A stretch of DNA of 64,000 bases from an uncultured Verrucomicrobiae bacterium. GTDB taxonomy: Bacteria; Verrucomicrobiota; Verrucomicrobiia; Limisphaerales; JAFGQR01. Shown in pieces: positions 10,103-64,000 of this stretch. A program made the translations under genes and the position numbers. A model generated the notes under the pieces. That model searched no databases. It was not told where the DNA came from and saw nothing but the letters and a program-made list of their open reading frames with translations. Where the stretch lies: contig CAWBHS010000011.1 of NCBI GenBank assembly GCA_963788655.1, forward strand, positions 62,120 to 126,119. Reading direction: 5' to 3'. Position 1 is the first letter of the stretch. Every line of letters begins with the position of its first letter.

Positions 10103-10374
10103 CACTGCCCGAGCCGATCTGCGACGGCGAAGGAGCGTTGGGCAACTTCACAGTTCAAAGCGCAAACATCATTTGGGGAAGTCGCGTCACGGGACTTTCA
10201 GGAGACGACGGGCATCGTCTCACTTGTTGGGCGGATCGGGAAGCTGGAAACTCCTTCCTTCGTCTCCTGCGATGGTGCCCCTACGCATTTCCAATGCGGC
10301 TTCAAAAAAACTATCGAATCTACGTGGATTTCGGCATTCTGCGTGCGTACGCATGGCCATATTCGGGCTGAAAC

Positions 10375-17185: not shown

Positions 17186-17276
17186 AACTTGCCAGTGTTC
17201 GCCAAATATTTGAGCAGGAGTTGACGCGTAGGCAAAGGAGAAACGGCAGTGAGGAGGTGGATCACCGAAAACAGTC

Positions 17277-20958: not shown

Positions 20959-21182
20959 CCGCGGGCTGGTTGAGCCCGGTGAGCCGGCAAGTCGATGAAT
21001 TTGGCCCGTTCCCGACTGCACAATCGATGAGAATATGTTTGTTAGCCCGATTGGTGCGGATGCTTGGCGCGGGCAGCTTCCGTCCGCTCTGCAAAAGCCT
21101 GCCAGCTTATCGTTCCTTGCTGAGGCGGCGGGTGTTTGGCTACACTCGAACCACTCGCTGAACAAAGAACGATGATACAACC

Positions 21183-44700: not shown

Positions 44701-45773
44701 TGAACTGGACGGATTTGCCCGGCGGCTTGAATTATGATTGGAACGCTGACTGGACGAAGCAATCCATTTCCCTGCAAGCCTACACGAATCAGGTCGTGCG
44801 CTTGCGCATTCAAACGTCAGGTAATTCCAGCGCGCCGGACGAAGACATTTACCTCGACAACTTGGGTATTGGCGAACCGCCGCCCGCCGCGCCGACACTG
44901 CAACGCGCCCGCGCCTTCGAGCATTGTCGAGGTGGTGCGGCCCACATTGGATCGTGAACAACGCCATTGATTTTCAAGGCGATCCCTTGACCTACCGGTT
45001 CGAAGTCTATGCCGATGCCGGACTGACCGACTTGGTGGCCCAGGTTCCCGCGGTGGCCAGCGGCGAGGGCACGAGTGCCTGGCCGGTGGATGTGAACTTG
45101 CAGAACAACGCCCAGTACCTGGTGGCGCAGCCAGGCCAGTGACGGCACCAATGTGGGCCCCTGGATGGCGACCGCCACGTTTTACGTGAACGAAGTGAAC
45201 AATCCACCGTTACCGGTGTTGATCGTTTCGCCCAATCATAGTGTGCTCTTTTCGAACCTGACCGAGTTGCTGGTATGGTATCCGACCGTGGACCCGGATG
45301 CGGGCGATACCATTGAGCAATATCACATCCAGATTGACTCGGCTTCGGCGTTTACCGCGCCGTTGATTGACGTGGACAACATCACCCTGGCCGAACCGCC
45401 CACGGAATCCTATTGGGCGGTGGCGGTGGCGCTCGAAGAACTTGCCGGGTCTGAGGAACTGGTGATTGGCACTCGCTACTATTGGCGGATTCGAGCCCAG
45501 GACAGCCGGTATGCCTGGTCGGACTGGAGCGAGGGCTTGCACTATTTCCGCTATGGCATCGTGCCACCCGTCTTGCAGGCTGCCCCGCTCCAACCGAATG
45601 GCGCCGTTTCCTTCCAATGGGAAGAAACCGACCTCGAGATTTACATCGAGTTTACGCCCACGCTCAATCCGCCGCACTGGATGACGATTGACGGGCCGAT
45701 TTACGGCACCAACTGGGTAGGCATGCCGGAACCCGGATCACCGACCGGATTCTATCGTTTGCGGATGGAATAG
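38772..45773 (+). CDS. Giant secreted repeat protein (~2300 aa) of jelly-roll (InhA/MAM/cleaved-adhesin-like) and fibronectin type III domains; about six frameshifts
   Basis: Signal peptide; recurring PFxDxFE...VEVSxDG..W...IDLSPW...RIRF...DGWxIDDV and FN3 (LxW...YxVY...TDxxL..GxTYYYKV) units continue across ORFs 38667..39608, 39725..43261, 43005..44957, 44924..45142 and 45153..45773. Confidence 0.8.
40400..44870 (+). repeat. Intragenic tandem repeat with a 1191-bp (397-aa) period, about 3.7 copies
   Basis: The anchor TGGCCGGT(G/A)TTGA occurs at 40592, 41783, 42974 and 44166. Confidence 0.9.
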
Positions 45774-46426: not shown

Positions 46427-46603
46427 TCAGGTTGAGGAGTTAATGAATTGAAGCGGTGAATTGGAAAGGAATGGAGAAGTTGCACGGCTGGGGCAACTTC
46501 TGAAGGAACAGGCGCGTCGAGGTCAAGGGGTGCAACATCCGTGCGGTTCCTCAATCCCGGGTGATGCCTTGGCATTTGGAGTGGCATTGGTCATATTGCC
46601 CCC

Positions 46604-48194
46604 GTGCCTGCAAATGACACCATTCGACGCAAGCTCAGCGAGCTGCCGCACAAGCCGGGCGTTTACTTGATGAAGGACCGCTTCGGCACGGTGATCTATG
46701 TCGGCAAGGCGCGCGATTTGCGGAAACGGGTCAGCCAGTATTTTCATCCGTCGCGGCGGATGGGCTGGGATTTGAAGTTCCGGGCGCTGGTGGACGCCAT
46801 TCATGATCTGGACGTTCACGTGGTGCGAAGCGAGCCGGAAGCGCTGTTGCTCGAAGGCAAGTTGATCAAGGAATTCCATCCGCGTTACAACGTCAGCTTC
46901 CGCGACGACAAACGGTTTCTGTTGCTCAAGGTCAACCTCCACGATCCCATCCCGCGGTTCAGCCTGACCCGGCTGCGCACGGATGACGGAGCCCGTTATT
47001 TCGGCCCGTTCGCCAACTCCGGAGCGTTGCGGAACACGCTGAACCTGATTCGGCACGAATTCAACTTGCGCGGCTGCCGGCCCCTGACGCCGACCGAGAG
47101 CGATTACAAGCATTGTCTCTACGCCCACCTCAAGCATTGCACCGCCCCATGCATCGGCAATGTGACGCGGGAACAGTATCTGGAACAGGTCACGGCGGCC
47201 TGCGATTTCCTGGCCGGCCAGTGCGAGGAAATGGCCGGACAAATCGAAGCGGAGATGAAGAAAGCCGCCGCCGCGCAGGAATACGAGAAGGCGGCGGAAC
47301 TGCGGGACCTGTTGGGTGACGTGCGCAAAACCACCGCCAAGACGGCGCGGTTCGAGCGCGTGCCGTATTCGCTGCCCGTGGCGCTTGATCCGAGCAACGA
47401 CTTGCAGGAACTCGCCCGTGTGCTTGGGCTTCCGGCGCCACCCGAACGGATCGAAGGTTTCGATATTTCCAACATCAGCGGCACCTTTGCGGTGGCTTCG
47501 TTGGTGAGTTTCCGCAACGGCCGGCCGGAGCGCGCCAACTATCGGCGGTTCAAGATGAAAACCGTGGTCGGCCAGGATGATTTCGCCTGCATGGCCGAAA
47601 CCGTTCGCCGCCGCTATACCCGCGTGTTGCGGGAACAGCAAAGCGAACCGACGTCGGCGGAAGATGTCACTGGACAAACCGGCAGGTGAGGAATTGCGCG
47701 AGACTGGGCCGCCGCATCCTGAAGCTGCCAAGCAGGGGCCTGCCGGCAAGACCTCGTTGCCGGATTTGATTTTGATCGATGGCGGCAAAGGCCAACTGAA
47801 TGCCGCCTGTGAAGAGTTGGCCAAGCTGGGATTGGAGCGAATTCCAGTCATCGGCCTGGCGAAGGAGTTTGAAGAGATTTATCGTCCGGGTGAAGCTGAA
47901 CCGTTGCGCTTGAACCATCAGACCGGGGCGTTGAAATTGTTGCAACGCATCCGGGACGAATCACATCGGGTGGCCAATTCCTACAACGCCCAATTGCGGA
48001 TGAAACGCATCTCCGAAAGTGTGCTCGACGAATTCCCCGGCATCGGGGGGCACCGCAAGGCGGCACTGCTGAAAAAGTTCGGCTCCGTCCAACGGCTGCG
48101 TTTGGCCACGGTGGAACAGATCGCGGAAGTGCCCGGCTTTGGCGGCAAGGCGGCCGCGGAACTCAAGGCCTTCCTGGAGGCGAGGACGGTCTGA
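46604..48194 (+). CDS. uvrC: Excinuclease ABC subunit C, frameshifted near 47665
   Basis: GIY-YIG (PGVYLMKD, IYVGKA), UVR domain, IEGFDISN, PDLILIDGGKGQ, RIRDESHR and an HhH tail. Confidence 0.93.
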
Positions 48195-48428
48195 CTCGCT
48201 TGTCTGCCGGACGGATCCCTTGGTTGCTCGTCAGTTACAGATCCCCGTGATATGCTCCTTTCTCGCGGCTCGGCCGCCATCCGGCATCCGGCGCGCTTTC
48301 GTCTTAACTTGATTGCTCATGGGATTAAGCGTCCCCAGCCGTGGTTGTCTTGGTGACGCCACTGTTTCGTTGCGTCCTGGTTAAACGTGCCGGTGGTTTC
48401 GGCATGAGACGGAGTTTGGGCTTCCGCA

Positions 48429-50733
48429 TCAATTCCTCAGACCTTCCGTCGCCACGTTATCTGGAAATTGTTCCGCGACGGCGTCCGGTTGCCCCGTCAG
48501 CGACCAACCTGTCTTGAGGCCCAACACAAACCACCCGAGCACCACCACGCCGATGCCGAAAATGCTGTCACCAATCACCCGCATCCAGCGAAGTGTCTGC
48601 ATGAGGCCCTGCTGCATGAAGTCGGCGGAGCGTGCCCACCACATGCCCTCGTTGACGCTGGCCACGGTTTGCAGCAGACCGCGGGGCAGATCGGATAGCA
48701 GCACCATAAGCGCCAGGCCGATATTGATGGACCAGAAGGCGATGGCGAGCGGTGACGTGCGCCAGTGGCGGCGGACGGTGAGGCCTTTGAGGCAGAACAG
48801 CATTAAGCCAATGCCCAACATTCCGTAAACGCCGAACAAGGCCGTGTGCCCGTGAACGGCGGTGGTGTTGAGCCCCTGCATGTAATACAGGGCAATCGGT
48901 GGATTGATGAGAAAGCCAAACAGACCCGCGCCTACCAGATTCCAAAAGGCCACGGCGACAAAGCAATAGATCGGCCAGCGGTATGCTGACACCCACCGTC
49001 GCGCCCGGGAGAGCGTCAGATTCTCGTAGGCTTCGAAGCCGATCAACACCAGCGGCACGACCTCCAACGCGCTAAACACGGCTCCCAATGCCATCACCGC
49101 CGTGGGCGTCCCGCTGAAGTACAGATGATGGAAGGTGCCAATGATTCCGCCCGAAAGAAATATGGTTGTGGAAAACAGAACCGCCGCCGTGGCCGTCACC
49201 GTGCGTAACAAGCCCATGCGCGTGAAGAGAAAGGCAATGACCACGGTGGCGAAGACCTCGAAGAAACCTTCCACCCACAGATGCACCACCCACCAACGCC
49301 AATATTCCGCCAGGGCGTAATGGGTTTGCCGGCCCCACATCAGCCCAGCCCCGTAGAACAAGGCAATCGCGGTCGAGGCAATCAGGAACAGCGCCAGCAG
49401 ATGTCGATGCTCGCCCGGCTTCCGAATGGCCGGCCACATGGCCCGGCCCATGAGGAAGAGCCACACCCACAATCCCACGAAGAGGAAGATTTGCCAGAAG
49501 CGCCCGAGATCCACGTATTCGTAGCCTTGATGGCCAAACCAGAAAGTTCATAGCGTAGCCCATCCGCTGGCGCGTGCCGTACCAGGTGCCGAACATCGAA
49601 CCGACGACGATGATTAGCAGACAAACAAAGAGAAAGTTTACGCCGGCCCGCTGGAACTTGGGTTCGTGTCCGGACACGGCGGGCGCGATGAACAGGCCGG
49701 TTGCCAACCAGGCCGTGGCAATCCAGAACACCGCCAACTGCGTGTGCCAGGTGCGGGTGACCGAATAGGGCAACCACTCGGCCAATGGAATGCCGTAGAA
49801 TCCATTGCCTTCCACGCCATAGTGCGCCGTCACCACGCCCATGATCACCTGGGCCACGATCAACGCCGCCACCACCCAGAAATATTTCAACGTCGCCTGC
49901 ATTGATGGCGTCGGTTGCAGTCCGAGCAACGGATCTTTCTCCGGCAGTTCCGGCGGGGTTTCCTCCTGGTGTTTGAGCACGGCGTAATACCACGCCAGCG
50001 CGCCCACGCCCGCGAGCAGCAGCACGAAACTGACGACCGACCACAACACGCTGGAACCGGTCGGCACGTTGCCCACCAGCGACTCCGGCGGCCAGTTGTG
50101 GGTGTAACTGATCGTTTCCCCGGGCCGATCGGTTGCGCATGCCCAGGCGGCCCAGAAGAAGAAGCCGGTTAGTTTGTGCCGGCGCTGCGGGTCGCGCAAC
50201 ACATTGCCGGGAATCGCATAAGCTTCGCGTAATTTGGCCAACTCCGGCGCGTTACTGAACAGCGTTGCGTAATGCCCGGCCACCGCCTGGATCGCGTCGC
50301 CGCGATCCTTCGAAACCACCAGTTCGCCCGTGTCGGGATGGTAGGTGTTCGTGCGAATCTCTTCCCGCAGTTTCTCCCGCAACGCCGCCTGATCGGTCGC
50401 CGCCACCTCGACGTAGGGCTTTCCAAACTGCTGGTTGGCCCAATGGTCCAGCAGCCAGACCGACTCGCGGTGCAACCAGTCGGCCGACCAGTCCGGCGCC
50501 ACGTAGGCGCCGTGGCCCCACACGGAGCCCATCTGCTGCCCACCGGCGGATTGCCACACGTTCTGGCCATCGCGGATCTCCTGTCCGGTGTAGAGGACGG
50601 TGCCATCCGCCGTGACCACCTTGGACGGAATTGGCGGCATTTTATGGTACAGGTCGTTTCCGTAGTAAATCAGCACGGCAAACGACGCGACGATGACGAT
50701 GACCAGACTGGTCCAGAGTTTTCGATAGTTCAT
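48429..50733 (-). CDS. norB: Quinol-dependent nitric oxide reductase (qNOR), frameshifted near 49540
   Basis: GSVWGHGAYVAPDWSADWLHRE, SYTHNWP, RTWHTQ, WWVVHLWVEGFFEVF, GTFHHLY and VHGHTA. Confidence 0.95.
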
Positions 50734-50737
50734 CAGT

Positions 50738-51169
50738 TCAGATTCCCAAGGCAGTTCGCATCGCAGCCGGTCGTTTCATCAGATCGGCCAGCGAGTAATT
50801 ATCCAACACCGCAAAGAAAGCCGCCGCGGCTTCATCCAGCACGTCGCGCAAACGGCAGGCGGGAAAAAGGCGGCACTGGCGATTGGTGCGATCGGTGCAG
50901 TTGATCACCATTTCAGTCTCCTCACCCAATCGCACGATGTCGCCCAACCGGATCGAGTCCGCGGGACGGCCCAGCGTAAATCCGCCGCCAATCCCGCGTT
51001 GGGTTGCGAGAAACCCGTTCCGGCCCAGGTCATGCACGACCTTGACCAAGTGATGGCGCGAGATGCCAAACGTCTCGGCCACTTCGTCCACCGTGACTCG
51101 TTCGGGGCAGCGCAGCGCGGCGTGCATCAGCACTCGGAGCGAATAATCAGAGTAGGTGCTCAGTTGCAT
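50738..51169 (-). CDS. nsrR: Rrf2-family NO-sensing repressor
   Basis: MQLSTYSDYSLRVL, ISRHHLVKVV, RGIGGG and three C-terminal Cys (CTDRTNRQCRLFPAC); lies between norB and ric. Confidence 0.88.
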   Translation of the reverse strand: MQLSTYSDYSLRVLMHAALRCPERVTVDEVAETFGISRHHLVKVVHDLGRNGFLATQRGIGGGFTLGRPADSIRLGDIVRLGEETEMVINCTDRTNRQCRLFPACRLRDVLDEAAAAFFAVLDNYSLADLMKRPAAMRTALGI

Positions 51170-51210
51170 CGGGCGGCAAAATGACACCGAAAGAAAAGCC
51201 GATCAAGTAA

Positions 51211-51233
51211 AAAATGTATTTGTAATACATCTT
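51211..51233. promoter_or_regulatory. NsrR operator (11-1-11 inverted repeat)
   Basis: AAAATGTATTT-G-TAATACATCTT closely matches the known consensus AAGATGYATTT-N-AAATRCATCTT and lies in the divergent nsrR/ric intergenic region. Confidence 0.85.
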
Positions 51234-51334
51234 TAAGTTGGTTACTCTGTTGCGCAGTGAAATTTGGGCAGTTGTGGGATCAAATTCTTCGGTGCGGACC
51301 GGAGCGCAATCTGCCCCCCAAAAACATATAGCGC

Positions 51335-52045
51335 ATGAAAAACATAACCGTTGAAACCACTGTGGGAGAAATCGTCCGCGCCCAGCCGGGCCGGTCACGC
51401 GTGTTTGAAAACCTCGGCATTGACTATTGTTGCGGCGGCAAGAAGCCGCTGGCCGAAGCCTGTCAGAAAAAGGGGCTCGATGCGGCCACGGTGGTCGCCA
51501 TGTTGGCCGCGTTGGACGGAGCACCGGATCCTGCCTCGGTCAATCCGGACACGATGACGCTTTCAGCGCTCTGCGATCACATCGAGGCAGTCCATCACGG
51601 CTATCTGCGCGAGGAATTGCCGCGGCTGGATTTCATGACGCGCAAAGTGGCCGCGGTTCACGGCGAACACGAACCCCGCCTGCTCGAAGTGCGGCAAGTA
51701 TTCGAGACGTTCCAAGCGGACCTTGCCTCTCACACCCGGGAGGAGGACGAACAGGTTTTCCCGGCGATACGTCAATTGGAAGCCGCCAATGGCAACCGGG
51801 TGGCGGCGTCGGCCGCACTGAAAACGTCCTTCGGTAAATTGGAGTCCGAACACGACAGCGCCGGGGCGGCGCTGGCGCGTTTTACCGAGCTGACGGACCG
51901 TTACTCACCGCCAGACTGGGCCTGCAACACGTTCCGTGCGCTTTACGATGGTCTGGCGCAATTGGAAAAGAACATGCACCAGCACGTTCACAAGGAGAAC
52001 AACGTCCTGTTCCCGCGCGCGCTGGCCTTCGGAGCATCGGCATGA
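51335..52045 (+). CDS. ric: Iron-sulfur cluster repair di-iron protein (YtfE/ScdA)
   Basis: GIDYCCGG, HIEAVHHGYLREE, EHD and HQHVHKENNVLFP. Confidence 0.95.
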   Translation: MKNITVETTVGEIVRAQPGRSRVFENLGIDYCCGGKKPLAEACQKKGLDAATVVAMLAALDGAPDPASVNPDTMTLSALCDHIEAVHHGYLREELPRLDFMTRKVAAVHGEHEPRLLEVRQVFETFQADLASHTREEDEQVFPAIRQLEAANGNRVAASAALKTSFGKLESEHDSAGAALARFTELTDRYSPPDWACNTFRALYDGLAQLEKNMHQHVHKENNVLFPRALAFGASA

Positions 52046-52482
52046 GCCAAAAGGGCAAGTTGCCGTTGGTTTACTCCTGCTCCGGCGCGTCGAGCGCCGC
52101 GCAAATGGCCAATCACATTGCCGTCAAACTCGACCGGCTGAAGGTCGCCGAGATGTCCTGCATCGCGGGCGTGGGTGGCGACGTGAAACCGCTGGTGCGC
52201 ACGGCCAAATCCGGCCGGCCCATCATCGCGCTCGATGGTTGCCCGCTCCACTGCGCCGCGCAGATTCTCAAACGGCAGGGCCTCAAGGCGGACAAGCATT
52301 ACGATCTCAGCAAAATGGGCGTGAAGAAAAAATACCATGAGGATTTCGATCCGCAGGAAGCCGAAGCGTCGTTCAGAGCAGATTCGCCGACAACGCACGC
52401 GTCCCTTGTCCAACCACGCGGATGTGCCCGACGAGGTGGAAGAGGAATGGCCGCGAACCTTCCAGCCCGGTGTGTTACTTGA
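52042..52482 (+). CDS. DGC-domain putative zinc-binding protein; C-terminus uncertain
   Basis: LVYSCSGASSAAQMAN, EMSCIAGVGG and IIALDGCPLHCA. Confidence 0.8.
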   Translation: MSQKGKLPLVYSCSGASSAAQMANHIAVKLDRLKVAEMSCIAGVGGDVKPLVRTAKSGRPIIALDGCPLHCAAQILKRQGLKADKHYDLSKMGVKKKYHEDFDPQEAEASFRADSPTTHASLVQPRGCARRGGRGMAANLPARCVT

Positions 52483-52529
52483 AAGAAGTTCGAAGCGGTA
52501 GCGGCTGGATCGAACTGTCGTGCATTCAG

Positions 52530-52917
52530 ATGGAGCTTCGCATCAAACGCGCCTACGAACCCGCATTGCCGGAGGACGGCGCACGATTTCTGGTGGACCG
52601 ACTGTGGCCGCGCGGGGTGAAGAAGGAAACGCTGGCTCTCACCGCCTGGCTCAAAGACGTTGCTCCGAGCGACGCTTTACGCCGCTGGTTCGGACATGAC
52701 CCGGCGCGATGGACGGAATTTCGCCGCCGCTACCGGGCCGAATTGAAAGTCGCAACCGACGGCATTGCAGCCTCTGCGTGACGCGCTGACGCGCGGCGTC
52801 GGTAACACTGGTGTATTCCGCACACGACGAGGCGCACAATCAGGCGGTGGTGCTGCGTGAGTATCTCCTGGAGACGAAGTCCTCATCCCGCAAAGCCTCG
52901 CGACGGAAGCCGACGCC

Positions 52918-52921
<4 letters not shown>
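52530..52921 (+). CDS. DUF488 (YeaO-like) protein, frameshifted
   Basis: IKRAYEP, DGARFLVDRLWPRGVKK, APSDALRRWFGHDP; a shifted frame gives VTLVYSAHDEAHNQAVVL. Confidence 0.85.
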
Positions 52922-54071
<1,150 letters not shown>

Positions 54072-54101
54072 CGATGGAGAAATACGCAGCTGCCTAACCT
54101 T

Positions 54102-55923
54102 ATGGACAGAACCGATAACGCGCAGCGCGCCGCAGCGATGATTCTGGGCGAAGTGGCCTCTTCCGGGCTGGCCCGCGGGCGCGCCTTGTTGTGTGACTGC
54201 GCCAAACAGGTGGCCGTGCCGCGCCGACAAATAGACGAGACGGAGATCAATTCGGAAATCGAGCGATTCGATGAGGCGGTGACCGCCGTCGAACAGAAGT
54301 TGAAGGACGTGCAGGCAGGCGTCCGACGTGCACTGGGAAACACTGAAGCGGAAATTTTTGAAGCGCAAATCCTTCTCGCGCGCGACCCGGGACTGCGCAA
54401 GGCGGTCCGCGACAGTTGCGTCGCCAAGCGGGTCAATGTGGAGGCCACGCTCGAAGAAGCCATCCAGCGGCTGGCCGCAAAGTTCGAACAGCTTGAAGAT
54501 GCCTATTTTCGTGAGCGGGCCGTCGATCTGCGTGAAGTGGGAAAGCGCCTGCCTGAACCACCTGGCAAGCCAGTCGCTTTCAGACATTCCGGATGATCCT
54601 GAAGGATGCGTGCTGGTCACCAGCGAATTGTTCTCCTCGGCCGTGGCGCAGTTGGAAGGTCGTGGCGTGCGGGGGCTGATTGTAGAGCGCGGCGGTCTGA
54701 CGGCCCACGCCACGATCCTCGCCCGGGCCCTTGGTATCCCCATGCTCGTGAAAGTGCCGCAGGCCACGGAGAAAATTTCCGCAGGCGATCTGCTGATCGT
54801 AGATGCCCTGGCGGGCCGTGCCTTCATCAACCCGAAATCAGACATCCTGCACGCCTACGATCAATTGGACGCTGATCTGCAAGCCCACCAGAATGCCTTG
54901 AAGAACCTGGTGGACCTCCCGGCAATAACCGCGGATGGCGTCGAGATCAAGCTCTCGGCCAACATCGGTCAAACGGCTGATGCGGTAACTGCCGTGCGCG
55001 TCAAAGCCGATGGCGCCGGACTGTATCGCACGGAATTCGTTTTCCTCGCGCAGGATCATTTCCCTTCGGAAGCTGAACAATACCGCTTTTACCGGGCCAC
55101 GGCCGAGCACCTACAGCCAGGCGAGACGGTGATCCGCGTTCTGGACGCGGGCAGCGACAAACCGCTCGCCTATTTTCCATTGCCACGCGAAGCCAATCCC
55201 GCCCTCGGCTGTCGTGGCATCCGACTGCTGCTCGCGCACCCCGAAATACTCCACACCCAGTTGCGGGCCATTCTGCGACTGAGCGCGACGCATCCGGTTT
55301 CCATCCTGCTGCCCATGATCCGCGGCCTGGACGAATTGCGCGCAACCAAAGCCGCCATCGAAAGTGTAAAATTGGAACTCGCCGCGGCGGGAGAGTCGTT
55401 CAATCCAGATCTTCCGAGTGGGTGTCATGATCGAAACCCCGTCCGCTGCGGTCCTCATCGCGCCACTGGCTGACGAGGTGGACTTCCTTAGCGTCGGCAC
55501 CAACGACCTTGTGCAGTATCTGCTGGCCGCTGACCGAATCAGTGGCGAAGCGGATTCCGCCTACGAACCGCTGCATCCCGCAGTTCTGCAGATGCTCGCC
55601 TCGTTGGCGACGACCGCCCGAAGCAAAGACACACCCATTTCTCTTGTGTGGCGAAATCGCCAGTGACCCGGTTTACACCGCCTTGCTGCTGGGGTTGGGA
55701 TTTCGGCGCTTCAGTGTCAGCCCGGGGCGGCTGCTGGAGATTAAACACGCCATCCGTTCCATTGATTTGACCGCGGCCAGCGAGTTCGCTGCGAAATTCT
55801 GTCTTTGAGTTCCGAGCAAGACATCCGGGCACAGGTGCAGGAAGACTGGAGCCGCCGCCGACCCGTCTCGTCCCCGGACCTCCCTTCCGCGACGCCGCAA
55901 CCGAACCACGCCTCCTGTCGTGA
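54102..55923 (+). CDS. ptsI: Phosphoenolpyruvate--protein phosphotransferase (PTS enzyme I), several frameshifts
   Basis: YFRERAVDLREV, GGLTAHATILARALGIP (phospho-His), GLYRTEF, EANPALGCRGIR, MIETP, SVGTNDLVQY and LCGE. Confidence 0.88.
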
Positions 55924-56201
55924 CCCACAATGCAAATTCTCGGCGCTTTGAAACTCAGTCTGCCGACGCATCCTTGTCGTTTCTGAACTACACGATCGAG
56001 GGCGACCGCATCACCTTCGAGCACACGTTTGTCCCGGATAAACTTCGCGGAAAGGGCATCGCCGCGAACCTGGCTCGCGTCGCCTTGACCGAGGCGCGGC
56101 AGCGCCATTGGAAAGTCATCCCCCGCTGTTCGTATGTCGCCGGGTTCATCAAGCAATATCCCGAGTTTGCCGATTTGCTCGAACCGGAACTGCTGCCATG
56201 A
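55920..56201 (+). CDS. YjdJ-type GNAT N-acetyltransferase
   Basis: FEHTFVPDKLRGKGIA and KVIPRCSYV. Confidence 0.85.
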   Translation: MTHNANSRRFETQSADASLSFLNYTIEGDRITFEHTFVPDKLRGKGIAANLARVALTEARQRHWKVIPRCSYVAGFIKQYPEFADLLEPELLP

Positions 56202-57861
56202 TCGCTTTCGATGCCGCGCACCAGGCCGTTCACTATCCGCCGGATCGGCGGTTTCGCATTTGGGTGCGTCCTTCCATTCTGGTGGTGGCTGGCGTGGTGA
56301 TATTGAGTTTGATCGCGGCCGCGTGGACCGAGTTCGCCATAGTCGGCCTGCCACACATCGCCGTTCTGCCGGAAGCTGACAATCCCACAAGTCCGCACGG
56401 ATTTCCCCTCTGGCTGCGGCTCTGTCATTTTTTGAATTTTTTCTTTTTGATGCTGCTGATCCGCAGCGGCCTCTCGATTCTGATGGATCATCCGCGCCTT
56501 TATTTCAACGATCACTGCACGCCGGGAAGCGAATGGATTCGCCTCACGCCGCTCAAGGTGCCTCGTGACCGGCTCTGGACCGCAAAAGACGATGCCCGCT
56601 ACCTCACGCCACTGGTAAGCACACCCGGTTATCGTCACACCATTGGCATTGCGCGCGTCTGGCACTTCATCAACGTCCACGGGTTCATTCTCACGGGCGT
56701 TTTCTTTTTCGTCATGCTCTTCGTCAGCGAGCAATGGCGGCGGCTGATCCCGCATTCATCCGGAAATATTCGGCGCAGGCATGGACAACTGGGTGCATTA
56801 TGCCACGTTCCATTGCCGTCCGAGCCCAACGGGTTCTATGCTTACAACGCCCTGCAACAACTGTCTTATTTCATCGTGGTCTTCGGGTTTGGTCCTTTGG
56901 CCATTCTGACGGGCATTGCCATGTCGCCCGCAGTGGTGAACCGCTTTCCGTGGTATGCGCGCATCTTTTTGGAGGACGGCAGACGGCCCGTTCGATCCAC
57001 TTCCTCAACATGCTCGGCTTTGTGGGGTTTATCCTCGTGCATGTGGCTTTGGTCAGCATCACCGGTTTTGCCCGCAACATGAACCATATCGTGTGGGGCA
57101 CCGACGATCTTCACCCACGAGGAATCATCCTGGGACTTGTCGCCATCGGAGCGGTGGTCTTTTCCTGGTGGGTGGTGCATTACCTCTCCTGGCATCACCC
57201 ACGCAAGGTCCAGCACGCGTTGAAACTGGTCACCTATCCGATGCAGTTGCTCACCCTGAACCGGCTGGTTCCGCAGCAGCACTACACCTTGGATGACCTC
57301 TCCCCACATTTCTGGCCCAACGGGAAGATGCCGACCAGCGCCGAGTGGCGGCGGCTGGCGGAAAATGGTTTCCGGGATTACCGGCTGAAGGTTGGCGGAT
57401 TGGTCGAGAAGCCGGTTGAACTTTCACTAGCGGACATCGCCAGACTCGGAGAAACCGAGCAGATCACCATGCACCACTGCATTCAGGGCTGGAGTGGGAT
57501 AGCGCAGTGGGGCGGCGTTCCGATGAAGGCCATCATTGACCTGGTGCGTCCGAAACCCGAAGCCCGAACCGTGGTGTTTTATTCCTTCGGTGAAGCCCTT
57601 TATGGCGGCGCGTATTACGATACCCAGACCATCGAAAATACACTCAAGCCGCAATGCCTGATCGCTTCGCACATGAACGGACAGCCGCTGCCAGAGGTCT
57701 ATGGCGCGCCCCTGCGGTTACGCGTTGAAAACCAACTGGGCTACAAAATGGTCAAATGGATTGAACGGATCGAGTTTGTCGAGTCGGAGAAAACCGTGGG
57801 CCAGGGCGAAGGCGGAAAGAATGAAGACGACGAATACTTCGATCTGCTGCCCAACATCTGA
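56198..57861 (+). CDS. Cytochrome b domain fused to a sulfite-oxidase-family molybdopterin oxidoreductase, several frameshifts
   Basis: TM part with His ligands (RLCHFLN, RVWHF, YNALQQLSY, RSIHF, ILVHV); Mo domain HHCIQGWSG and YGAPLRLRVENQLGYKMVKWI. Confidence 0.85.
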
Positions 57862-57947
57862 CAAACCTGAACCGTGATGCAAAAACCAACCAAAGCCAGT
57901 GACGGCGTCGGGAAAACTTACCCGGCCGTTGCTTGCCGCTTTGAATT

Positions 57948-58429
57948 ATGAAAGCACGAATCGAATACCAGAAAATCGCGCCCGCCGCCTTCCAGGCGAT
58001 GTTGGCCTTTGAAACGTATGTCCGTAGTTGCGGTTTGGAACCGGCGCTGCTGGAACTGATCAAAATCCGCGCCTCGCAAATCAACGGCTGCGCTTACTGC
58101 CTGGACATGCACACCAAGGACGCGCGCGCCGCGGGCGAAAGCGAACAGCGCATCTACGCGCTGAACGCCTGGCGCGAGACGCCGTTCTTCACCGAACGGG
58201 AACGCGCCGCGCTGGCCTGGACCGAGAGCGGTCACGTTGGTGGCCGAACGCGCACGTGCCCGACGAGCGTCTACGAGCACGTGCGCCGGCATTTCTCCGA
58301 ACAGGAGCTGGTCGAATCTCACCGCTGCCGATCGTCGCCATCAACGGCTGGAACCGATTCGCCGTCAGCTTCCGTTCCGTGCCCGGCACCTATCAACCGC
58401 CGCAGCACCAGGCGCAAGTTTCCAAATGA
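57948..58429 (+). CDS. Carboxymuconolactone decarboxylase / AhpD-like protein, frameshifted
   Basis: ELIKIRASQINGCAYCLDMH and FTERERAALAWTE; a shifted frame gives AINGWNRF. Confidence 0.88.
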
Positions 58430-59403
58430 ACCCAACCGAGCAACGCGCCAAAGCCGCCGCCTTTCGCGATCTCCATCACGGGCCGAAAATTCTCGTGTTG
58501 CCCAATGCGTGGGATTGCGTGAGCGCCCGGCTCTTTGAGCAGGCGGGTTTTTCCGCCCTGGCCACGACGAGTGGGGGCATCGCCGCCGTGCTGGGTTATC
58601 CGGATGGGCAACACATTCGTCCACACGAAATGCTGGCGCTGGTGGGCCGAATCGCGGAAACGGTTTCGGTGCCGGTGACGGCGGATCTGGAAGCGGGTTA
58701 CGGCAAGACCGTCGCGGAAGTTGCGGAATTCATGCGACAAGCCATCAGCGCGGGCGTCGTGGGCGCGAATATCGAAGACAGCAGTGGCGCGGATCATCGG
58801 CTCGCCGATCTTGCGTATCAAGTTGAAGTCATCCAAGCGATTCGCCAGGTAGCGACGGACTGCGAAATTCCGTTTGTTGTGAACGCGCGCGTGGATGTTT
58901 ATTTGCATGGAGGGGGCGACGAACCGGATCGTTTCGCCCAAGTCGTTCAGCGCGCAAAGGCGTATCGCGACGCGGGAGCGGACTGTGTGTTTCCCATCGG
59001 ATTGAAAAATCGCGAAACCATCGCGCGCCTCGTTCCGGAAATCGGCTGTCCGCTAAACATCATGGCCGGGCCGGGTGCTCCGACGATTGCCGAACTGGAA
59101 CAACTTGGCGTCCGGCGGGTGACTTTTGGCACCGGTTTGATGCGCGCGACCTTGCCGCTGATCCGCCAAATGGCGCAGGAACTCCGCGCCTCCGGCGGTT
59201 GCGATTCCATGGCGCAAACTGAATTCACCCACGCCGTGGTGAACCAACTCTTCAAACCATCGAGGCTTCATCCCGGGTTGCTCCCAATTTCATCGGGCGA
59301 TGGACGATGCCATTTCACCGTCTTCGTTGATTCTGCAGCCGTCTCTGAACGGCCGCGTCTTTCCGGCGCCCTGCCAACCTTCGCCAATGACCGTATTCCC
59401 TAA
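58426..59403 (+). CDS. Isocitrate lyase / PEP mutase family protein; C-terminus uncertain
   Basis: [35 protein letters not shown] and AGADCVF. Confidence 0.85.
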
Positions 59404-60821
59404 AATTATCCAGGGCGGCATGGGTGTCGCGATCTCGAATTGGAAGCTCGCGCGGGCCGTGTCGCGTCTCGGGCAATTCGGCGTCGTGTCCGGCACGGGC
59501 ATCGAGACGATGCTCGCGCGACGCCTGCAACTGGGCGATCCCGCGCGGGGCGATTCGGCGGGCGCTTGGCGCATTTCCCGTTCCCCGCCATGGTCGAACG
59601 CGTGTTGGCGGATTATTTCATTGAAGGCGGCAAGGCCGAAAATGCGCCCTTTCGCCTCGTCCCGAAAGCCTCGCTGAAGCCCGGCCCGCGTTTTGTGGAG
59701 CCGGTTGTTCTCGGCGCTTTCGTCGAAGTGTTTCTCGCCAAAGAGGGGCACGATGGTGCGGTCGGCATCAATCTCCTTGAAAAAGTCCAGCTCCCCACTT
59801 TGCCGGCGCTGTTCGGCGCCATGCTCGCGGGCGTGACTTGCGTGCTCATGGGCGCGGGAATTCCGCGCGCCATTCCCGGCAGCGCTGGACCGGTTGGCCG
59901 CCGGCGAAACCGCCGAATTGAAGATCGATGTCGAAGGCGCTCTTCCCGGAGAGGAATTCGTCTCCACTTTCGATCCGCAGGCATTCTGCGATGGCAACGT
60001 GCCGACACTCAAACGGCCAAAGTTCTTCGCGGTGATTTCCTCAGCCACGCTGGCCATGACGCTGTCGCGCAAATCCAACGGCCGCGTGGACGGCTTCATC
60101 GTCGAAGGCGAAACCGCCGGAGGTCATAACGCGCCGCCGCGCGGCTCCATGCAGCTCAGTGCCAAGGGCGAACCGATCTATGGCTCGCGCGATGTCCCGG
60201 AGCTGGAGAAAATCCGCGCGCTGGGGCTGCCGTTCTGGCTGGCCGGTTCCTACGGGCAGCCGGGAAAACTTGAAGAAGCCCTGCGCCTCGGTGCCGCCGG
60301 CATCCAGGTCGGAACCGCCTTCGCATTCTGCGAGGAATCCGGCCTTCAACATGAACTCAAGCAGCAGGCCGATCGGACTTTCCCGCGCGGGCCGGGCGGA
60401 AATCTTCACCGATCCGCTGGCTTCGCCCACCGGCTTTCCTTTCAAGGTGGCGGCGATGCCGGGCACGCTTTCCGATCCGGAAATTTTTGCGGCCCGTGAA
60501 CGCATCTGCGACATCGGCGCGCTCCGGCGACCTTACCGCAAGGCGGACGGCACCGTCGGCTATCGCTGCCCCAGCGAGCCCGTTGAAGATTATGTGCGGA
60601 AAGGCGGACCCGCTGACGAAACCGAGGGGCGCAAATGTATCTGCAACGGGCTGATGGCCACCGCCGGCTTTGTGCAAGTGCGGTCCGAATCTGGAAATGA
60701 ACCCGCACTGGTGACGGCTGGCAATGACTTCGGCCGGATTGCGGAATTCCTCCCGGCAAAAAAGAATTCATACACCGCCGCCGATGCCGTTTGTTGCCTG
60801 CTCGGCACCGGAGCGACCTGA
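59387..60821 (+). CDS. Nitronate monooxygenase family flavoprotein, several frameshifts
   Basis: [38 protein letters not shown] and a Cys-rich tail (ICD, RCP, KCICNGL). Confidence 0.85.
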
Positions 60822-60840
60822 TTCTCCCAAAACAAAAATC

Positions 60841-61185
60841 ATGAAACACGATCAACTCTATCTCCTCAAACACAACTTCCAGGATCAGGGTAAAACCTAC
60901 TACTGCCCCGGCTGCGCCGAAATGATCGGCCTCCTCGAATTTTATCCCGCGCTCAAACCGGGCATTGAAATTCACTACGTGGATTTTGCGCGGCCGCGGC
61001 CGGAGCTGGTTTCACTGCTGGGCGAGGCCAATCAAGGTTGCCCGGTTCTGGTGCTCGCAACCGTGCCGCAAAATCCTCCCGCGCACCTCAAGGTGCAACA
61101 TGCCAACGGCCGCGCGTTCGTCGCGGACCCACGGGAGATCGGCGAATATCTCGCCCACGTCCACGGCATTGGGATTCCGCATTGA
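60841..61185 (+). CDS. DUF3088 family protein (CxxC, glutaredoxin-like)
   Basis: DQLYLLK, YYCPGC, VDFARPR, LLGEANQGCPVLVL and HGIGIPH. Confidence 0.8.
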   Translation: MKHDQLYLLKHNFQDQGKTYYCPGCAEMIGLLEFYPALKPGIEIHYVDFARPRPELVSLLGEANQGCPVLVLATVPQNPPAHLKVQHANGRAFVADPREIGEYLAHVHGIGIPH

Positions 61186-61295
61186 GGCACCGACGACAAG
61201 CAGGAAAGACCATGGCTAACGCGAATAGGCCGTCGCTATGAACTCATAGCCGGACCAACGCGTGCTGCGCACCACCTTGCGGCAAGAATGCTGTA

Positions 61296-63253
61296 ATGGC
61301 GCATCGAAGCTCGTCTATGATTTGTCGTATTCTCATCTTGTGGTTGTTCGCGACAGTGCTCGCGGTTTCCCTGGCTCGCGCCGAGACCGCATCGGTTCAA
61401 ACCGCCTGGCGGCTGCTCGACTATATCGCGGTTGATTATCCGGGGGCGGTTCATGATGGCGCGGTGATCAGCGAGGCAGAGTTTGCGGAGATGACCGAGT
61501 TCGCGGCGTCGGCTCACGAGCGGATCAATGAGTTGCCCCCGTCCAGCGCGCGCGCCGATCTGCAACACCGGGCGGTAGCGCTGCAAACCCTCATTGCCAA
61601 CAAAGCTCCCGCCACGACCGTCGCGGCGACGGCGCGCACGCTCGCGGCCGATCTCATCAAGGCCTATCCGATAACGCTCGCACCGGTGAAGCCGCTCGAT
61701 TTCGCACGCGGGCAGACGCTCTACACGCAGAACTGCCTGAGTTGCCACGGCGCGAACGGGGACGGTAATGGTCCGGCTGCCCTTGGGCTGGTCCCGCCGC
61801 CGATCGCGTTTACCGACAAACATCGCGCCCGCGAACGAAGCGTGTTCGCGCTTTATCAGGTGATCGAGCAGGGCATCCCCGGCACCAGCATGGCCAGCTT
61901 CGGCGTGTTGCCGCCCGAGGATCGGTGGGACCTGGCACTTTATGTCAGTGCCTTTGCGTTTCCCGAAAGCGCCGCGGACGAAGGCCGGCGAATCTGGCAG
62001 GAGAACGCGACGCTGCGCGCCGACATCAATCTGGAAAAACTGGTGGGCCTGACTCCGGCTTCGCTCGCGAACGAAATCGGCGAAACCAAGGCGGATGCCA
62101 TCACCGCCTATCTGCGTCGCCATCCGGCCGCCGTGCAGGAACCCGCAATCAACGACCGGTCCGCTCACGCTGGCCCGCACCCGCCTGGACGAGGCGTTGA
62201 CCGCCTACGCAACGAAGGTGCTCGCAAAGCCGCCGCCGACCTGGCGCTGTCGGCCTATCTCGACGGTTTTGAACCGGTCGAACCGATGCTAGCCGTGCGC
62301 GACAATGCGCTCAAGATTCGCATCGAAGGCGCGATGGGAACGTTGCGCGCCAACATTGCCAAAGGGCTGCCCCGGACGAAGTCCGTAAACAGGCGGCGGC
62401 GCTCAATACGCTGTTGCCCGAGGCGGAAGCCGCGCTCGCGCGCCACGAAGCGTCGGCCGGATCCAGCTTCTTCGGCGCGTTCACGATCCTGCTGCGCGAA
62501 GGGCTGGAAGCGCTTCTGATCGTCGTCGCGATGCTCGCCTTTCTGCGGAAGGTGGAGCGCGAAGGATGCGCTGCCTTACGTCCACGGCGGTTGGATCGCG
62601 GCGCTGGTGGCGGGTGGTTTGACATGGGGCGTCGGCACCTATCTCATCGGCATCAGCGGCGCCAGTCGGGAGTTGACGGAAGGTTTCGGCTCCGTCCTGG
62701 CCGGCGATTATCCTGCTCTGGGTGGGCGTGTGGATGCACGCGCAAGAGCAACGCCAGGCCTGGCAATGCTATGTGTCTGGATGAGCTGAATCACGCGCTC
62801 AAGCGCCGCTCCGCATGGTTCCTGTTCGGGTTGTCCTTCATCGTGGTCTATCGCGAAGTGTTCGAGACGATCCTGTTCTACGCCGCGATCTGGAATCAGG
62901 GAAATAGCGGCGCGGTGCTGGCGGGCGGAGCGACGGCGGTGCTTGCTCTGTTGGCGGTGGCTGCGGTGATGCTGCGCTACGGGCGCCTGCTGCCCATTGG
63001 CAAGTTCTTCGCCTACAGCTCGGTGCTGATCGCGCTGCTGGCCGTCGTGCTGACCGGCAAGGGCGTCGCAGCGTTGCAGGAAGCCGGCTATCTGCCGATC
63101 CATCCGCTGGCGAGTTTTCCGCGGATCGAGATTCTCGGAATGTTTCCGACGCGCGAGGGCATCATCGCTCCGCTGGCAATGGTGCTCTTCCTGGCAATCG
63201 GTTTCGGCTATAATCATCGTCTGGCGCAAAGGGCCGCTCCGCCAACGAATTGA
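61296..63253 (+). CDS. Cytochrome c / FTR1-family iron permease (PbrT-like), several frameshifts
   Basis: LLDYIAVDYPGAV, CLSCH heme motif, AYLDGFEPVE and two RExxE motifs (LLREGLE, YREVFE). Confidence 0.88.
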
Positions 63254-63575
63254 CCCATCGGCCCGGCCGGTGGGCGGATCAAAACATGAACTCAAATCAT
63301 GCGCTTTGAAGAACTGACCGAACAACGACTGCTCGATCTTTACCGGGCGCGTTTCGGGGAGCACGTGCCACTGCTGCTGCGGCAGGATGTGCGCGGCTTT
63401 CGCGTTCGTCGCCCGGTGTGACTCGGACGTGCGTTGCCGCCGGAGACATCTCGGATTCGGTTTTCAAAAAGCCAATCTCATTCCGTTTCAAACCGCATTC
63501 TGAAGTCGTCGCTGGAATTAATTGTTCCCCATTGCAAAACCGAACAAGTCAGCCGATAATGGACCATCAGTCACG

Positions 63576-63866
63576 ATGAAACCAACAACTCCAACCAAAT
63601 CCGATGGATTTTTTGGCAGTCAGTTCGAAAATGTCCTGGAACTTATCAGCTACCAGGACGGTGCCATTCCCAGCCGCGCTGGTCAGGAAGGCAACTGGTA
63701 ACGTCGCCCTGTTCGCCTGCGACGAAGGCCAGGGCTTGAAGCCGAGCACACCGCTCCCTTTGATGCGCTCGCGCAGGTGCTCGAAGGAGAGGCTGAAATC
63801 ACGATCTCCGGCCAGCCCCACCGGCTGCAAGGTGCCGAGATGATTCTCACGATGATTCGTTCCTGA
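63576..63866 (+). CDS. Cupin domain protein, frameshifted and possibly truncated
   Basis: Joined frames give ISYQDG..., GNVALFACDEGQGL and EHTAPFDALAQVLEGEAEITISG. Confidence 0.65.
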
Positions 63867-63892
63867 AACCACAACCAAAAAGCAATCAAACC

Positions 63893-64000
63893 ATGAAAAA
63901 CAACTTGAAAATCACCTTGGCTGCTGCGGCCATGCTGACCGCTGCGTTGCTCGCCTCTCAATCCGCACAAGCCCATTGCGACAGCCTCGATGGCCCGGTC
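63893..64000 (+). CDS. Secreted DUF6448-like protein, 5' end only
   Basis: MKNNLKITLAAAAMLTAALLASQSAQA followed by HCDSLDGPV. Confidence 0.65.
   Translation, partial: MKNNLKITLAAAAMLTAALLASQSAQAHCDSLDGPV

Follow-up and report, generated by a model that had tools for sequence, protein, structure and literature searches.

We analysed a 64,000-nucleotide stretch of DNA from an uncultured Verrucomicrobiae bacterium (GenBank assembly GCA_963788655.1, contig CAWBHS010000011.1, positions 62,120 to 126,119), called the window here and numbered from its first letter. At its right-hand end the genes for an NsrR-like regulator and a quinol-type nitric oxide (NO) reductase (qNOR, norB) are read leftward, and a long array led by ric, which encodes a di-iron repair protein, is read rightward. 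As a first-pass annotation of this DNA had proposed, the two sides diverge across an NsrR-type palindrome at 51211-51233. Pfam scans of 34 open reading frames (ORFs) from 48.4 to 64 kb, a region of about 60% G+C, recovered every gene family named in that annotation. The features are the following, with reading frames corrected as described below.

48429-50733, minus strand: norB, quinol-type nitric oxide reductase (Pfam; two ORFs, one +1 frameshift near 49545)
50738-51187, minus strand: nsrR-like Rrf2 regulator (Pfam Rrf2, 116.9 bits against a 30-bit cut-off)
51211-51233, no strand assigned: NsrR-type palindrome (predicted operator), 23 nt, 11-1-11, AAAATGTATTTGTAATACATCTT (consensus and matrix)
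51335-52045, plus strand: ric, YtfE/ScdA-type di-iron repair protein, intact (Pfam ScdA_N and Hemerythrin)
52042-52500, plus strand: Cys-rich DGC-domain (PF08859) protein, ATGA overlap with ric (Pfam DGC, 118.8 bits)
52530-52921, plus strand: DUF488 protein, two +1 frameshifts (Pfam DUF488/DUF488-N3i)
52918-54071, plus strand: Cys/Met pyridoxal phosphate (PLP) enzyme, CysMet below, of the cystathionine gamma-lyase/synthase family (Pfam Cys_Met_Meta_PP, two fragments)
54102-56201, plus strand: Enzyme I (EI), a phosphoenolpyruvate (PEP)-protein phosphotransferase, fused to a GNAT domain, Acetyltransf_CG (Pfam fragments; five frameshifts)
56198-57861, plus strand: cytochrome b561-like membrane domain (cytb) fused to a sulfite-oxidase-fold molybdopterin (Mo) domain (Pfam Ni_hydr_CYTB and Oxidored_molyb)
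57895-57936, plus strand: stable hairpin with a 13-bp stem, within the 86 nt that separate the Mo-enzyme gene from the CMD gene
57948-58429, plus strand: AhpD-like CMD-family protein (Pfam CMD, 83.4 bits)
58426-59403, plus strand: isocitrate-lyase (ICL)/PEP-mutase superfamily protein (PEPM), intact, ATGA overlap with CMD (Pfam PEP_mutase, 284.8 bits)
59387-60821, plus strand: nitronate monooxygenase (NMO)/FabK-like flavin mononucleotide oxidoreductase, about 480 aa (Pfam NMO, partial, 40.6-59.9 bits)
60841-61185, plus strand: intact gene for a 114-aa DUF3088 protein bearing a CPGC motif (Pfam DUF3088, 108 bits)
61296-63253, plus strand: cFTR1-like fusion of cytochrome c (cyt c) and an iron permease of the FTR1/EfeU type (Pfam Cytochrom_C and FTR1)

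The locus was compared with relatives found by searching genome contigs with the RIC protein. The search returned 415 stretches and 340 relatives, of which the top 80, each with flanks of up to 10 kb, were retained (1.23 Mb in total; L001 to L080). These are the loci of other species most similar in RIC, at 49-79% identity to the window protein; L001 to L065 are mostly labelled Verrucomicrobiota (including Limisphaerales, Chthoniobacterales and Opitutales), and L066 to L080 belong to other phyla. Intact orthologue proteins were aligned to the window by a frameshift-aware dynamic programme under a strict and a lax penalty. As a control, 15 pairs of intact orthologue protein and intact locus gave 0 events more than 43 residues from a protein end. 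Window events only a few residues from protein ends (50740, 52930, 56176 and 60819) were not counted.

ORF 49072-50733 matches the NorB_cytochrome_c-like family (242 bits) and COX1 positions 2-113, and ORF 48429-49514 continues with COX1 positions 119-435; both domains of a qNOR, an N-terminal cytochrome c-like domain and haem-copper oxidase subunit I, are present. Against the intact L002 orthologue, 690 of 788 residues are identical (87.6%), and one internal +1 near 49545 breaks the frame. The nsrR stop lies 4 nt ahead of the norB start. The best NCBIfam match of the nsrR product is NsrR itself (NF008240), at 118.5 bits under an equivalog cut-off of 182 in a model built on proteobacterial NsrR; RirA comes next at 106.6 bits. 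The nearest protein in the PDB is Streptomyces coelicolor NsrR (5n07, E 5e-16). C97, C105, C111 and D14 align to its Cys/Asp positions, which we take to be the cluster ligands. Residue 7 is the first to align with 5n07, which makes ATG 51169 the likely nsrR start.

The palindrome lies 42 nt from that ATG and 102 nt from the ric ATG, and thus adjoins both nsrR itself and NO-detoxification genes. It has 1 mismatch to the NsrR consensus, is the sole match in 64 kb, and has no counterpart in 100 shuffles. It contains the core gATGyAT-N5-ATrCATc that is given in passages of Rodionov et al. 2005 (PMC1274295). A symmetrised matrix made from the NsrR-type sites of the relatives scores it at 38.3 bits, and scanning all 64 kb with this matrix gave no second box of at least 10 bits.

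On the other side of the palindrome, an uninterrupted plus-strand array of 11.9 kb begins with ric at 51335 and ends with the stop of FTR1 at 63253, with all frame-corrected gaps at or below 110 nt. The first-pass annotation had described 14 co-directional genes. The shared strand is confirmed, and the count drops to 11 after fused pairs are merged, because orthologues encode EI-GNAT (698 aa in L014 and L001), cytb-Mo (574 aa in L016) and cyt c-FTR1 (656 aa in L038) as single proteins; cyt c and FTR1 are separate genes in L018. Similarly, four of five reported 4-nt overlaps are true junctions: 52042 (ric/DGC), 52918 (DUF488/CysMet, a -4 overlap found also in L002, L006 and L007), 56198 (GNAT end/cytb start, where MIAFDA matches L016) and 58426 (CMD/PEPM). 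Those at 52918 and 58426 are valid only once frames are corrected. The fifth, GTGA at 55920, is internal to the EI-GNAT gene, because translation of the linker passes from IKHAIRS... (frame 0) through QEDWSRRRPVSSPD (frame 2) to VVTHNAN...FETQ (frame 0), and all three segments match L014 and L001. Two more ATGA junctions occur at 54068 and 59387.

Most array genes are thus joined by start/stop overlaps or gaps of at most 30 nt. The other gaps measure about 30 nt before DUF488, at most 30 before EI, 86 before CMD, 19 before DUF3088 and 110 before cyt c. The hairpin in the 86-nt gap is stable (fold of 57850-57960: -28.4 kcal/mol, z -2.43, with 3 of 200 shuffles as stable), lacks a clear U tract and has no Rfam match; it might mark the boundary of a sub-operon or serve to stabilise the RNA. 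Rfam models matched nothing at gathering threshold over 48000-64000, and promoter and terminator scans ran at shuffle level (3 vs 3.5 and 17 vs 18.1) and were uninformative. The only plus-strand promoter-like site found, at 63532-63560, falls in the 320-nt gene-free gap after the FTR1 stop. Past 63253 the same-strand run goes on with a cupin-like gene at 63577 and a further gene from 63894.

RIC passes TIGR03652 (239.7 bits vs a 204.7 cut-off). The DGC gene directly after it encodes a small Cys-rich PF08859 protein, not a diguanylate cyclase. All of 26 aligned sequences share C13, C40, C67 (in the DGC motif), C71, H86 and H99, and many of these proteins end in the conserved tail SPxCYLxEF. The C-terminal third of the window gene is frameshifted at about 52363 and 52451, and its version of the tail, EPSSPVCYLKE, lies in another frame. 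Among the 26 loci with DGC, the gene follows ric co-directionally within 200 nt in 15, and in 4 more a single racemase gene stands between them. An apparent ric-DGC fusion in L005 is a chance read-through of a long open frame in another frame. A model of the DGC domain (predicted local distance difference test, pLDDT, 81) retrieved nothing better than E 0.022 in a PDB fold search, and the Atlas returned other PF08859 clusters only, named 'putative zinc-binding protein'. The DUF488 protein is identical to its L008 orthologue at 94 of 130 frame-corrected positions; the literature passages that mention DUF488 present it only as a fusion partner of ParB-CTPase-fold proteins and give no function. 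The corrected CysMet protein matches its orthologue at 329 of 396 residues, and the L017 orthologue spans positions 1-380 of the 381 in the Cys_Met_Meta_PP profile.

The EI-GNAT gene of the window has every EI domain, spread over five frameshifts. Its L014 orthologue reaches 494 bits on TIGR01417 (cut-off 341.7) with all EI domains present, and aligns end to end with the solved EI 2hro (E 3e-116), including the phospho-His (GGxTxH) and the active-site Cys (CGE). The tail resembles the minimal acetyltransferase At1g77540. EI-GNAT proteins fall into many clusters, including records labelled Accumulibacter, and carry the annotation PtsI only. When the protein collection was searched with a clean 288-aa fragment, P0029 (698 aa) was the nearest full-length match, at 95% identity to the fragment. 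A further predicted protein, P0020 (814 aa), carries DUF488 (3-126), Enzyme I (133-668) and GNAT (729-806) in one chain. It could be a Rosetta-stone-type link of three genes of the window that also adjoin one another in several loci, or else the product of a stop codon lost in that assembly.

The remaining genes encode enzymes and transporters, for several of which the first-pass annotation had offered specific roles. The corrected cytb-Mo protein is identical to the single 574-aa ORF of L016 at 471 of 570 positions. Its Mo domain is a distant member of the sulfite-oxidase fold, scoring 58.2 against 207 bits on the MsrP equivalog (NF003767), which leaves the proposed label of a Mo enzyme for oxide repair weaker than first stated. 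The CxxC motif of the CMD protein reads CAYC in both the window and L016. The PEPM protein is frameshift-free, agrees with L016 at 243 of 278 residues, and falls under every NCBIfam equivalog cut-off; its nearest PDB entry, 2ze3 (DFA0005, E 2e-51), is a member of unknown function. Nitroalkane turnover by a nitronate monooxygenase had also been suggested. The NMO-like protein, identical to L014 at 407 of 484 positions, gives no full-length NMO match: the Pfam match covers only positions 143-243 of the 331 in the profile (59.9 bits), NCBIfam yields only FabK, at 41.8 bits vs a cut-off of 453, and the best of the weak PDB matches is also FabK, at E 2e-10. It is a distant NMO/FabK-like flavoprotein. 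According to passages of PMC3032703, a 2-nitropropane-dioxygenase-like gene of Neisseria gonorrhoeae is anaerobically induced and under MtrR, not NsrR. C22 and C25 of the DUF3088 protein (CPGC) are invariant in 11 sequences. Its model (pLDDT 90) has weak Foldseek matches to glutathione S-transferase omega, CLIC and thioredoxins (E 3e-3 to 0.09, TM-score 0.40-0.58), and a thioredoxin-like fold is predicted. The cyt c-FTR1 protein, with six frameshifts in its gene, agrees at 507 of 650 residues with L038, where a single 656-aa ORF carries the haem motif CMSCH.

Most of these families recur beside ric in other species. We counted matches within 10 kb of ric by tblastn with window ORF pieces (E at most 1e-8). 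In the 80 loci, nsrR is found in 38, DGC in 26, DUF488 in 19, norB in 16, CysMet and DUF3088 in 12 each, EI, GNAT and the NMO-like gene in 11 each, cyt c in 7, FTR1 and CMD in 6 each, the PEPM-like gene in 3, cytb in 2 and Mo in 1. Genes from the window flanks served as controls and were found in 1 (usp), 0 (uvrC) and 1 (an ORF at the window end) of the 80. That end ORF (63683-64000, minus strand) is itself unlikely to be a gene, as the plus strand there encodes the cupin-like protein. Of the 80 loci, 49 have one or more of the 13 accessory domain families. The set is confined to the 65 Verrucomicrobiota-like loci, except for DGC (1 of 15) and DUF488 (4 of 15) in other phyla. The first-pass annotation had named as grounds for rejection that the gene set might never lie with nsrR or nor elsewhere; this does not apply, as every accessory family recurs near ric or nsrR in Verrucomicrobiota, though in differing orders. 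With 7 of the 13 families L008 is the richest relative, and the window is therefore the largest union among the 81 loci compared.

Gene orders vary widely. Depending on the locus, EI is preceded by DUF488, nsrR and its box, CysMet, DGC, GNAT or ric. L006 and L007 read nsrR, box, EI-GNAT, ric, DUF488, CysMet, and L008 reads ric, racemase, DGC, DUF488, EI, CMD, PEPM, CysMet, GNAT. In L016 the order is ric ... DUF488 ... GNAT, cytb-Mo, CMD, PEPM; in L025 it is ric, DGC, CysMet, GNAT, NadA, NMO, DUF3088. L038 and L026 read nsrR, box, cyt c-FTR1, ric, and in L005, L006, L007 and L034 DUF3088 comes after norB. A maximum-likelihood tree, quickly built from 75 RIC sequences, was used to count changes in presence at their fewest. 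Presence changed 17 times for DGC, 6 for EI and 9 for the NMO-like gene, against 20.5, 7.8 and 10.4 with shuffled labels, counts that are inflated by contig truncation and RIC paralogues. This near-shuffled scatter indicates that the association is not one inherited block.

NsrR-type boxes are common in the same loci, and several of the accessory genes stand first behind one. The consensus pattern with at most 3 mismatches gave 37 sites in 35 of the 80 loci, and the matrix at 10 bits or more gave 48 sites in 41 loci, vs 2 in shuffled loci. In box-bearing loci, 82 accessory-family matches are oriented away from the box and 5 towards it. Forty-six boxes reach 14 bits or more. On their plus-strand side the nearest labelled gene is ric in 32, EI in 3 (L006, L007 and L040), cyt c-FTR1 in 2 (L026 and L038), a hemerythrin gene in 2 and none in 7. 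On the minus-strand side it is nsrR in 30, a hemerythrin gene in 4, CMD in 2 (L026 and L030), IlvD in 1 (L033) and none in 9. Where nsrR is the first gene to the left, it lies 22-76 nt from the box.

Other genes recur in these neighbourhoods as well. Pfam scans of cluster representatives identified IlvD, NadA, SufB/SufC, hemerythrins, NnrS, a nirK-like multicopper oxidase and P450, along with pyruvate dehydrogenase E1/E2, a HemN-like radical SAM protein, NrdD, a methyltransferase, and Crp-type, TetR and second-family Rrf2 regulators. Within ric-led arrays we observed IlvD (L001, L010 and L033), NadA (L014, L025 and L040) and SufB/SufC (L040 and L045). Iron-sulfur (Fe-S) enzymes of this kind are targets of NO. 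The Fe-S enzyme and assembly genes in the relatives' ric arrays may be extra copies expressed under NO stress, and the Fe-S, Fe-S assembly and NO-metabolism neighbours together fit a theme of replacing what NO damages. Cupins also recur near ric in relatives; the cupin-like protein of the window is 38% identical to that of L010.

The second Rrf2 family adjoins ric in L010, L025, L035, L036, L039, L042, L049, L074, L077 and L079. It is about 28% identical to the window NsrR where measured, and its 10 loci have no NsrR-type box. In these loci the neighbourhood is probably served by another kind of operator. Verrucomicrobial-looking ric loci also appear under other labels, including Bifidobacteriaceae, Hyphomicrobiales, Acidobacteria and Nitrospirota (L002, L004, L034, L015, L019 and L031). 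Together with the Accumulibacter-labelled EI-GNAT records, these foreign labels suggest mis-binning, mislabelling or horizontal transfer.

These comparisons point to a real, and apparently undescribed, modular NsrR/ric-linked neighbourhood in Verrucomicrobiota, since the families recur beside ric and nsrR and point away from the box, since flank genes recur only rarely, and since boxes head several different units. The window locus, from a member of the class Verrucomicrobiia near MAGs of Limisphaerales type, is, in our judgment, probably a verrucomicrobial NsrR-type NO-stress locus in which a single box governs both nsrR-norB and the ric-led array, with the frameshifts recording errors. From sequence we infer the control of the distal genes by this one box, and likewise most of the biochemical roles.

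In the mechanism we propose, a [4Fe-4S] Rrf2 repressor, presumably the product of this nsrR, would sit on the palindrome 51211-51233 in the 147-165 nt divergent spacer. NO would break the Fe-S cluster and release the repressor, as in established NsrR biochemistry. Leftward, nsrR-norB would then be transcribed and NO reduced to N2O; rightward, the ric-led array would be transcribed, with possible read-through to the distal modules. The array would unite modules that became attached to ric or nsrR independently in related species. The first (ric, the putatively metal-binding DGC protein, DUF488 and the Cys/Met PLP enzyme) would combine iron-centre repair with sulfur or homocysteine chemistry. 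The EI-GNAT fusion, as a second module, might act in PEP-driven phosphotransfer and as an acetyl-transfer regulator or enzyme. A third would consist of the membrane cytochrome b-molybdoenzyme, the AhpD-like protein and the ICL/PEP-mutase-family enzyme, a fourth of the NMO/FabK-like flavoenzyme and the predicted thioredoxin-fold CPGC protein (DUF3088), and a fifth of the cytochrome c-FTR1 iron importer.

A more ambitious version of this model is that the NO sensor directly controls EI-GNAT (sometimes with DUF488), cyt c-FTR1, DUF3088, the AhpD-like/ICL-PEPM pair and DGC as a partner of RIC, forming a modular Verrucomicrobiota regulon of which the window, as one NO-induced supra-operon, would be the fullest example. 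We put this version forward tentatively.

Several points weigh against one box governing the whole locus. The window has this one box only, with none before any distal gene, and relatives in which EI-GNAT or cyt c-FTR1 heads a unit give that unit a box of its own. Distal control here would therefore need read-through of 10-12 kb, past the stable hairpin in its 86-nt gap and past the 110-nt gap before cyt c-FTR1. Other observations tell against a universal set. Ten ric loci have the different Rrf2 regulator and ten a Crp-type regulator, and NsrR is therefore not the only regulator to which the neighbourhood is attached. In 31 of the 80 loci no accessory family is found, and cytb, Mo and the PEP-mutase-like gene occur near ric in only 1-3. 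The roles that can be offered for DGC, DUF488, the NMO-like protein and the ICL/PEPM member are weak. The comparison covers the 80 most RIC-similar loci, of which 49 include at least 8 kb 3' of ric; gene calls in them are crude, and some genomes supply 2-3 paralogous loci. Finally, the local frameshift excess, about 18-fold, must be explained by the error model, which leaves it without an explanation.

Part of this evidence would also suit a stress island made of several transcription units. Here NsrR would act only on nsrR-norB and ric-DGC(-DUF488-CysMet), and the distal modules would have promoters and regulators of their own, adjoining the core by clustering of function or by joint mobility. 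The single box, with no internal box of at least 10 bits, the hairpin and the two larger gaps would all be expected of such an island, as would the separate boxes at unit heads in relatives and the second Rrf2 family, Crp-type and TetR regulators common in the same neighbourhoods. In Opitutales-type loci the NMO-like genes come after a Crp-type gene and sometimes face ric. Running counter to it are the overlaps and gaps of at most 30 nt that connect most of the array genes, the position of the sole plus-strand promoter-like site 3' of the array, and the same families directly next to boxes in other species. We regard the island as possible and on the unlikely side.

The reading of the array also depends on its frameshifts. 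Several families are matched by 2-3 adjacent ORFs in differing frames. Alignment to intact orthologues placed 27 internal frameshifts (strict) to about 31 (lax) between 52363 and 62782, plus the one in norB (+1 at 49545). Under the strict penalty they are distributed as follows: DGC, +1 at 52363; DUF488, +1 at 52752 and 52789; CysMet, -1 at 53636 and +1 at 53842 and 53957; EI-GNAT, +1 at 54552, 55417, 55640 and 55901 and -1 at 55797; cytb-Mo, +1 at 56759, -1 at 56814 and +2 at 56963; CMD, +1 at 58314 and 58330 and -1 at 58403; PEPM-family gene, none; NMO-like gene, +1 at 59546, 59565, 59881 and 60371; cyt c-FTR1, +1 at 62148, 62561, 62703 and 62782, +2 at 62212 and -1 at 62370. The lax penalty adds three +1 events in CMD (6 in total) and the second event in DGC, in agreement with a three-frame reading. 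The strict set of 27 comprises 22 insertions and 5 deletions. No in-frame stop is found in the corrected frames of any aligned array gene. The corrected proteins are 72-88% identical to their orthologues, similar to the 79% of the intact ric and the 84% of nsrR. Aligned to P0029, EI-GNAT shows the same five frameshifts at 624 of 693 identical residues (90%), with no gap and no stop, and each of its six inter-shift segments is 81-98% identical.

The rest of the window is much cleaner. The frameshift rate of 52.36-62.8 kb is about 18x that of 1-48.4 kb, where there are only 5 overlapping same-strand ORF pairs and at most about 7 frameshift candidates; stop-free frames of at least 400 aa number 20 in 1-48.4 kb vs 3 in 52.4-63.3 kb. 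Genes outside the locus are split into overlapping same-strand ORFs too, in 46565-48191, 10372-13631, 21162-23112 and 39698-45770: uvrC is split once and a GH78 rhamnosidase gene once (-1 near 12289), and a nucleoside hydrolase/GH43 pair and large MAM-domain proteins may also be broken. The whole record therefore seems indel-prone, at a far lower rate than in 52.4-64 kb. The cupin-like gene (63577-63862) is read in frames 0, 1, 0, and the poor stretch therefore reaches the window end. Frameshift sites were not enriched near GATC (5 of 29 within 10 nt vs 3.8 expected, P 0.32) or in homopolymers (mean run 2.38 vs 2.45 at random sites).

Could the frameshifts be real, with the distal locus a recently inactivated pseudogene array in which nsrR, ric, the PEPM-family gene and DUF3088 stayed intact? 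The crowding of 27-31 frameshifts into about 10.4 kb would suit such decay, as would a broken norB and sites without the homopolymer link of many platform errors. Natural bacterial gene decay is deletion-biased, and insertion-type errors are typical of certain long-read data. The excess of insertions here is thus opposite to the bias of decay; nonsense codons and large deletions are absent, all genes keep their full length and align collinearly to intact relatives (72-90% identity), and unrelated window genes such as uvrC are also split, which points to record quality. We consider a pseudogene array improbable. Judged from the sequence, the frameshifts are most likely indel errors of the record, not biology, because the indels are random and insertion-dominated, without nonsense codons, in fully collinear genes, and because housekeeping genes elsewhere are broken as well. 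Our guess at the source is a low-coverage patch, or a gap filled from raw long reads.

Chance juxtaposition of unrelated co-directional genes after an ordinary nsrR-norB/ric pair, which would account for the 1-3 of 80 loci with cytb, Mo or PEP-mutase-like homologues and for the 31 without any of the set, can be dismissed as highly improbable given 10 of 13 accessory domain families in 6-26 loci vs 0-1 for flank genes, the orientation of 82 vs 5, and, in other species, boxes that immediately precede EI-GNAT, cFTR1 and CMD.

If this verrucomicrobial set is real, its genes would be candidates for the NO response of a soil or freshwater bacterium, with resupply of iron and sulfur, thiol repair and rewiring of PEP-linked signalling. 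For DGC, DUF488, DUF3088 and the EI-GNAT fusion it would also provide a first context of function. In addition, the locus illustrates that a gene-rich-looking region can be poor sequence, and annotation of 52.4-64 kb needs frame correction.

Elsewhere in the window, 442-2778 and 14867-19298 encode an ApbE protein, a pair of NosD-like beta-helix proteins and a TPR-repeat multihaem cytochrome of 862 aa, genes that may be respiratory or N-oxide related. The gene from 63894 encodes a signal-peptide protein.

Most mapped NsrR regulons are those of Proteobacteria and Firmicutes, with hmp, hcp, ytfE and nor at their centre. Full-text searches, judged by titles and abstract openings, brought up no publication that deals with an NsrR regulon of Verrucomicrobiota or with the present set of genes, which agrees with the first-pass statement that the combination is not known as a described regulon. 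The locus shares with the regulons of Proteobacteria, Bacillus and Streptomyces an Rrf2 repressor gene adjoining NO-detoxifying genes, and the core ATGyAT-N5-ATrCAT that appears in passages of PMC1274295. Targets of these regulons include norB and dnrN/ytfE (ric), and their content is known to vary between taxa; the linked set of the window (EI-GNAT, the Cys/Met PLP enzyme, DGC, DUF488, DUF3088, the NMO/FabK-like protein, CMD with ICL/PEPM, cytb-Mo and cyt c-FTR1) is not among the NsrR members named in the same passages. The window differs from known regulons in belonging to Verrucomicrobiota, in lacking hmp and hcp at the locus, and in a regulator that scores under the NCBI NsrR equivalog cut-off.

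The RIC protein is typical of RIC/YtfE/ScdA systems in passing TIGR03652 and in pairing ScdA_N with a hemerythrin domain, and ric is the first gene after the NsrR site, as in enterobacteria. Unlike those systems, the window and 15 of the 80 relatives have the gene for the Cys/His-rich DGC-domain protein directly after ric, with a 4-nt overlap in the window; our literature search found no mention of DGC as a partner of RIC. The Enzyme I resembles those of the phosphotransferase system (PTS), including EI-Ntr (PtsP), in its full orthologue architecture, its TIGR01417 match and its aligned catalytic residues. It differs from PtsP in having a C-terminal Acetyltransf_CG GNAT domain, where PtsP has an N-terminal GAF domain, and from PTS systems in that the locus has no HPr/NPr or EIIA gene and that EI-GNAT is placed behind NsrR boxes. 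The cytb-Mo protein recalls MsrPQ (YedYZ), by analogy only, in joining a sulfite-oxidase-fold Mo domain to a membrane b-type cytochrome. In the window both parts are in one chain, and the membrane part is Ni_hydr_CYTB-like and presumably not of the MsrQ family. Finally, cFTR1 is reportedly a cytochrome c-FTR1 fusion permease of cyanobacteria. The window protein is like it in architecture, with a CxxCH cytochrome c fused to an FTR1/EfeU permease, and differs in context: in two Chthoniobacterales-type loci the gene lies beside nsrR behind an NsrR box of its own.

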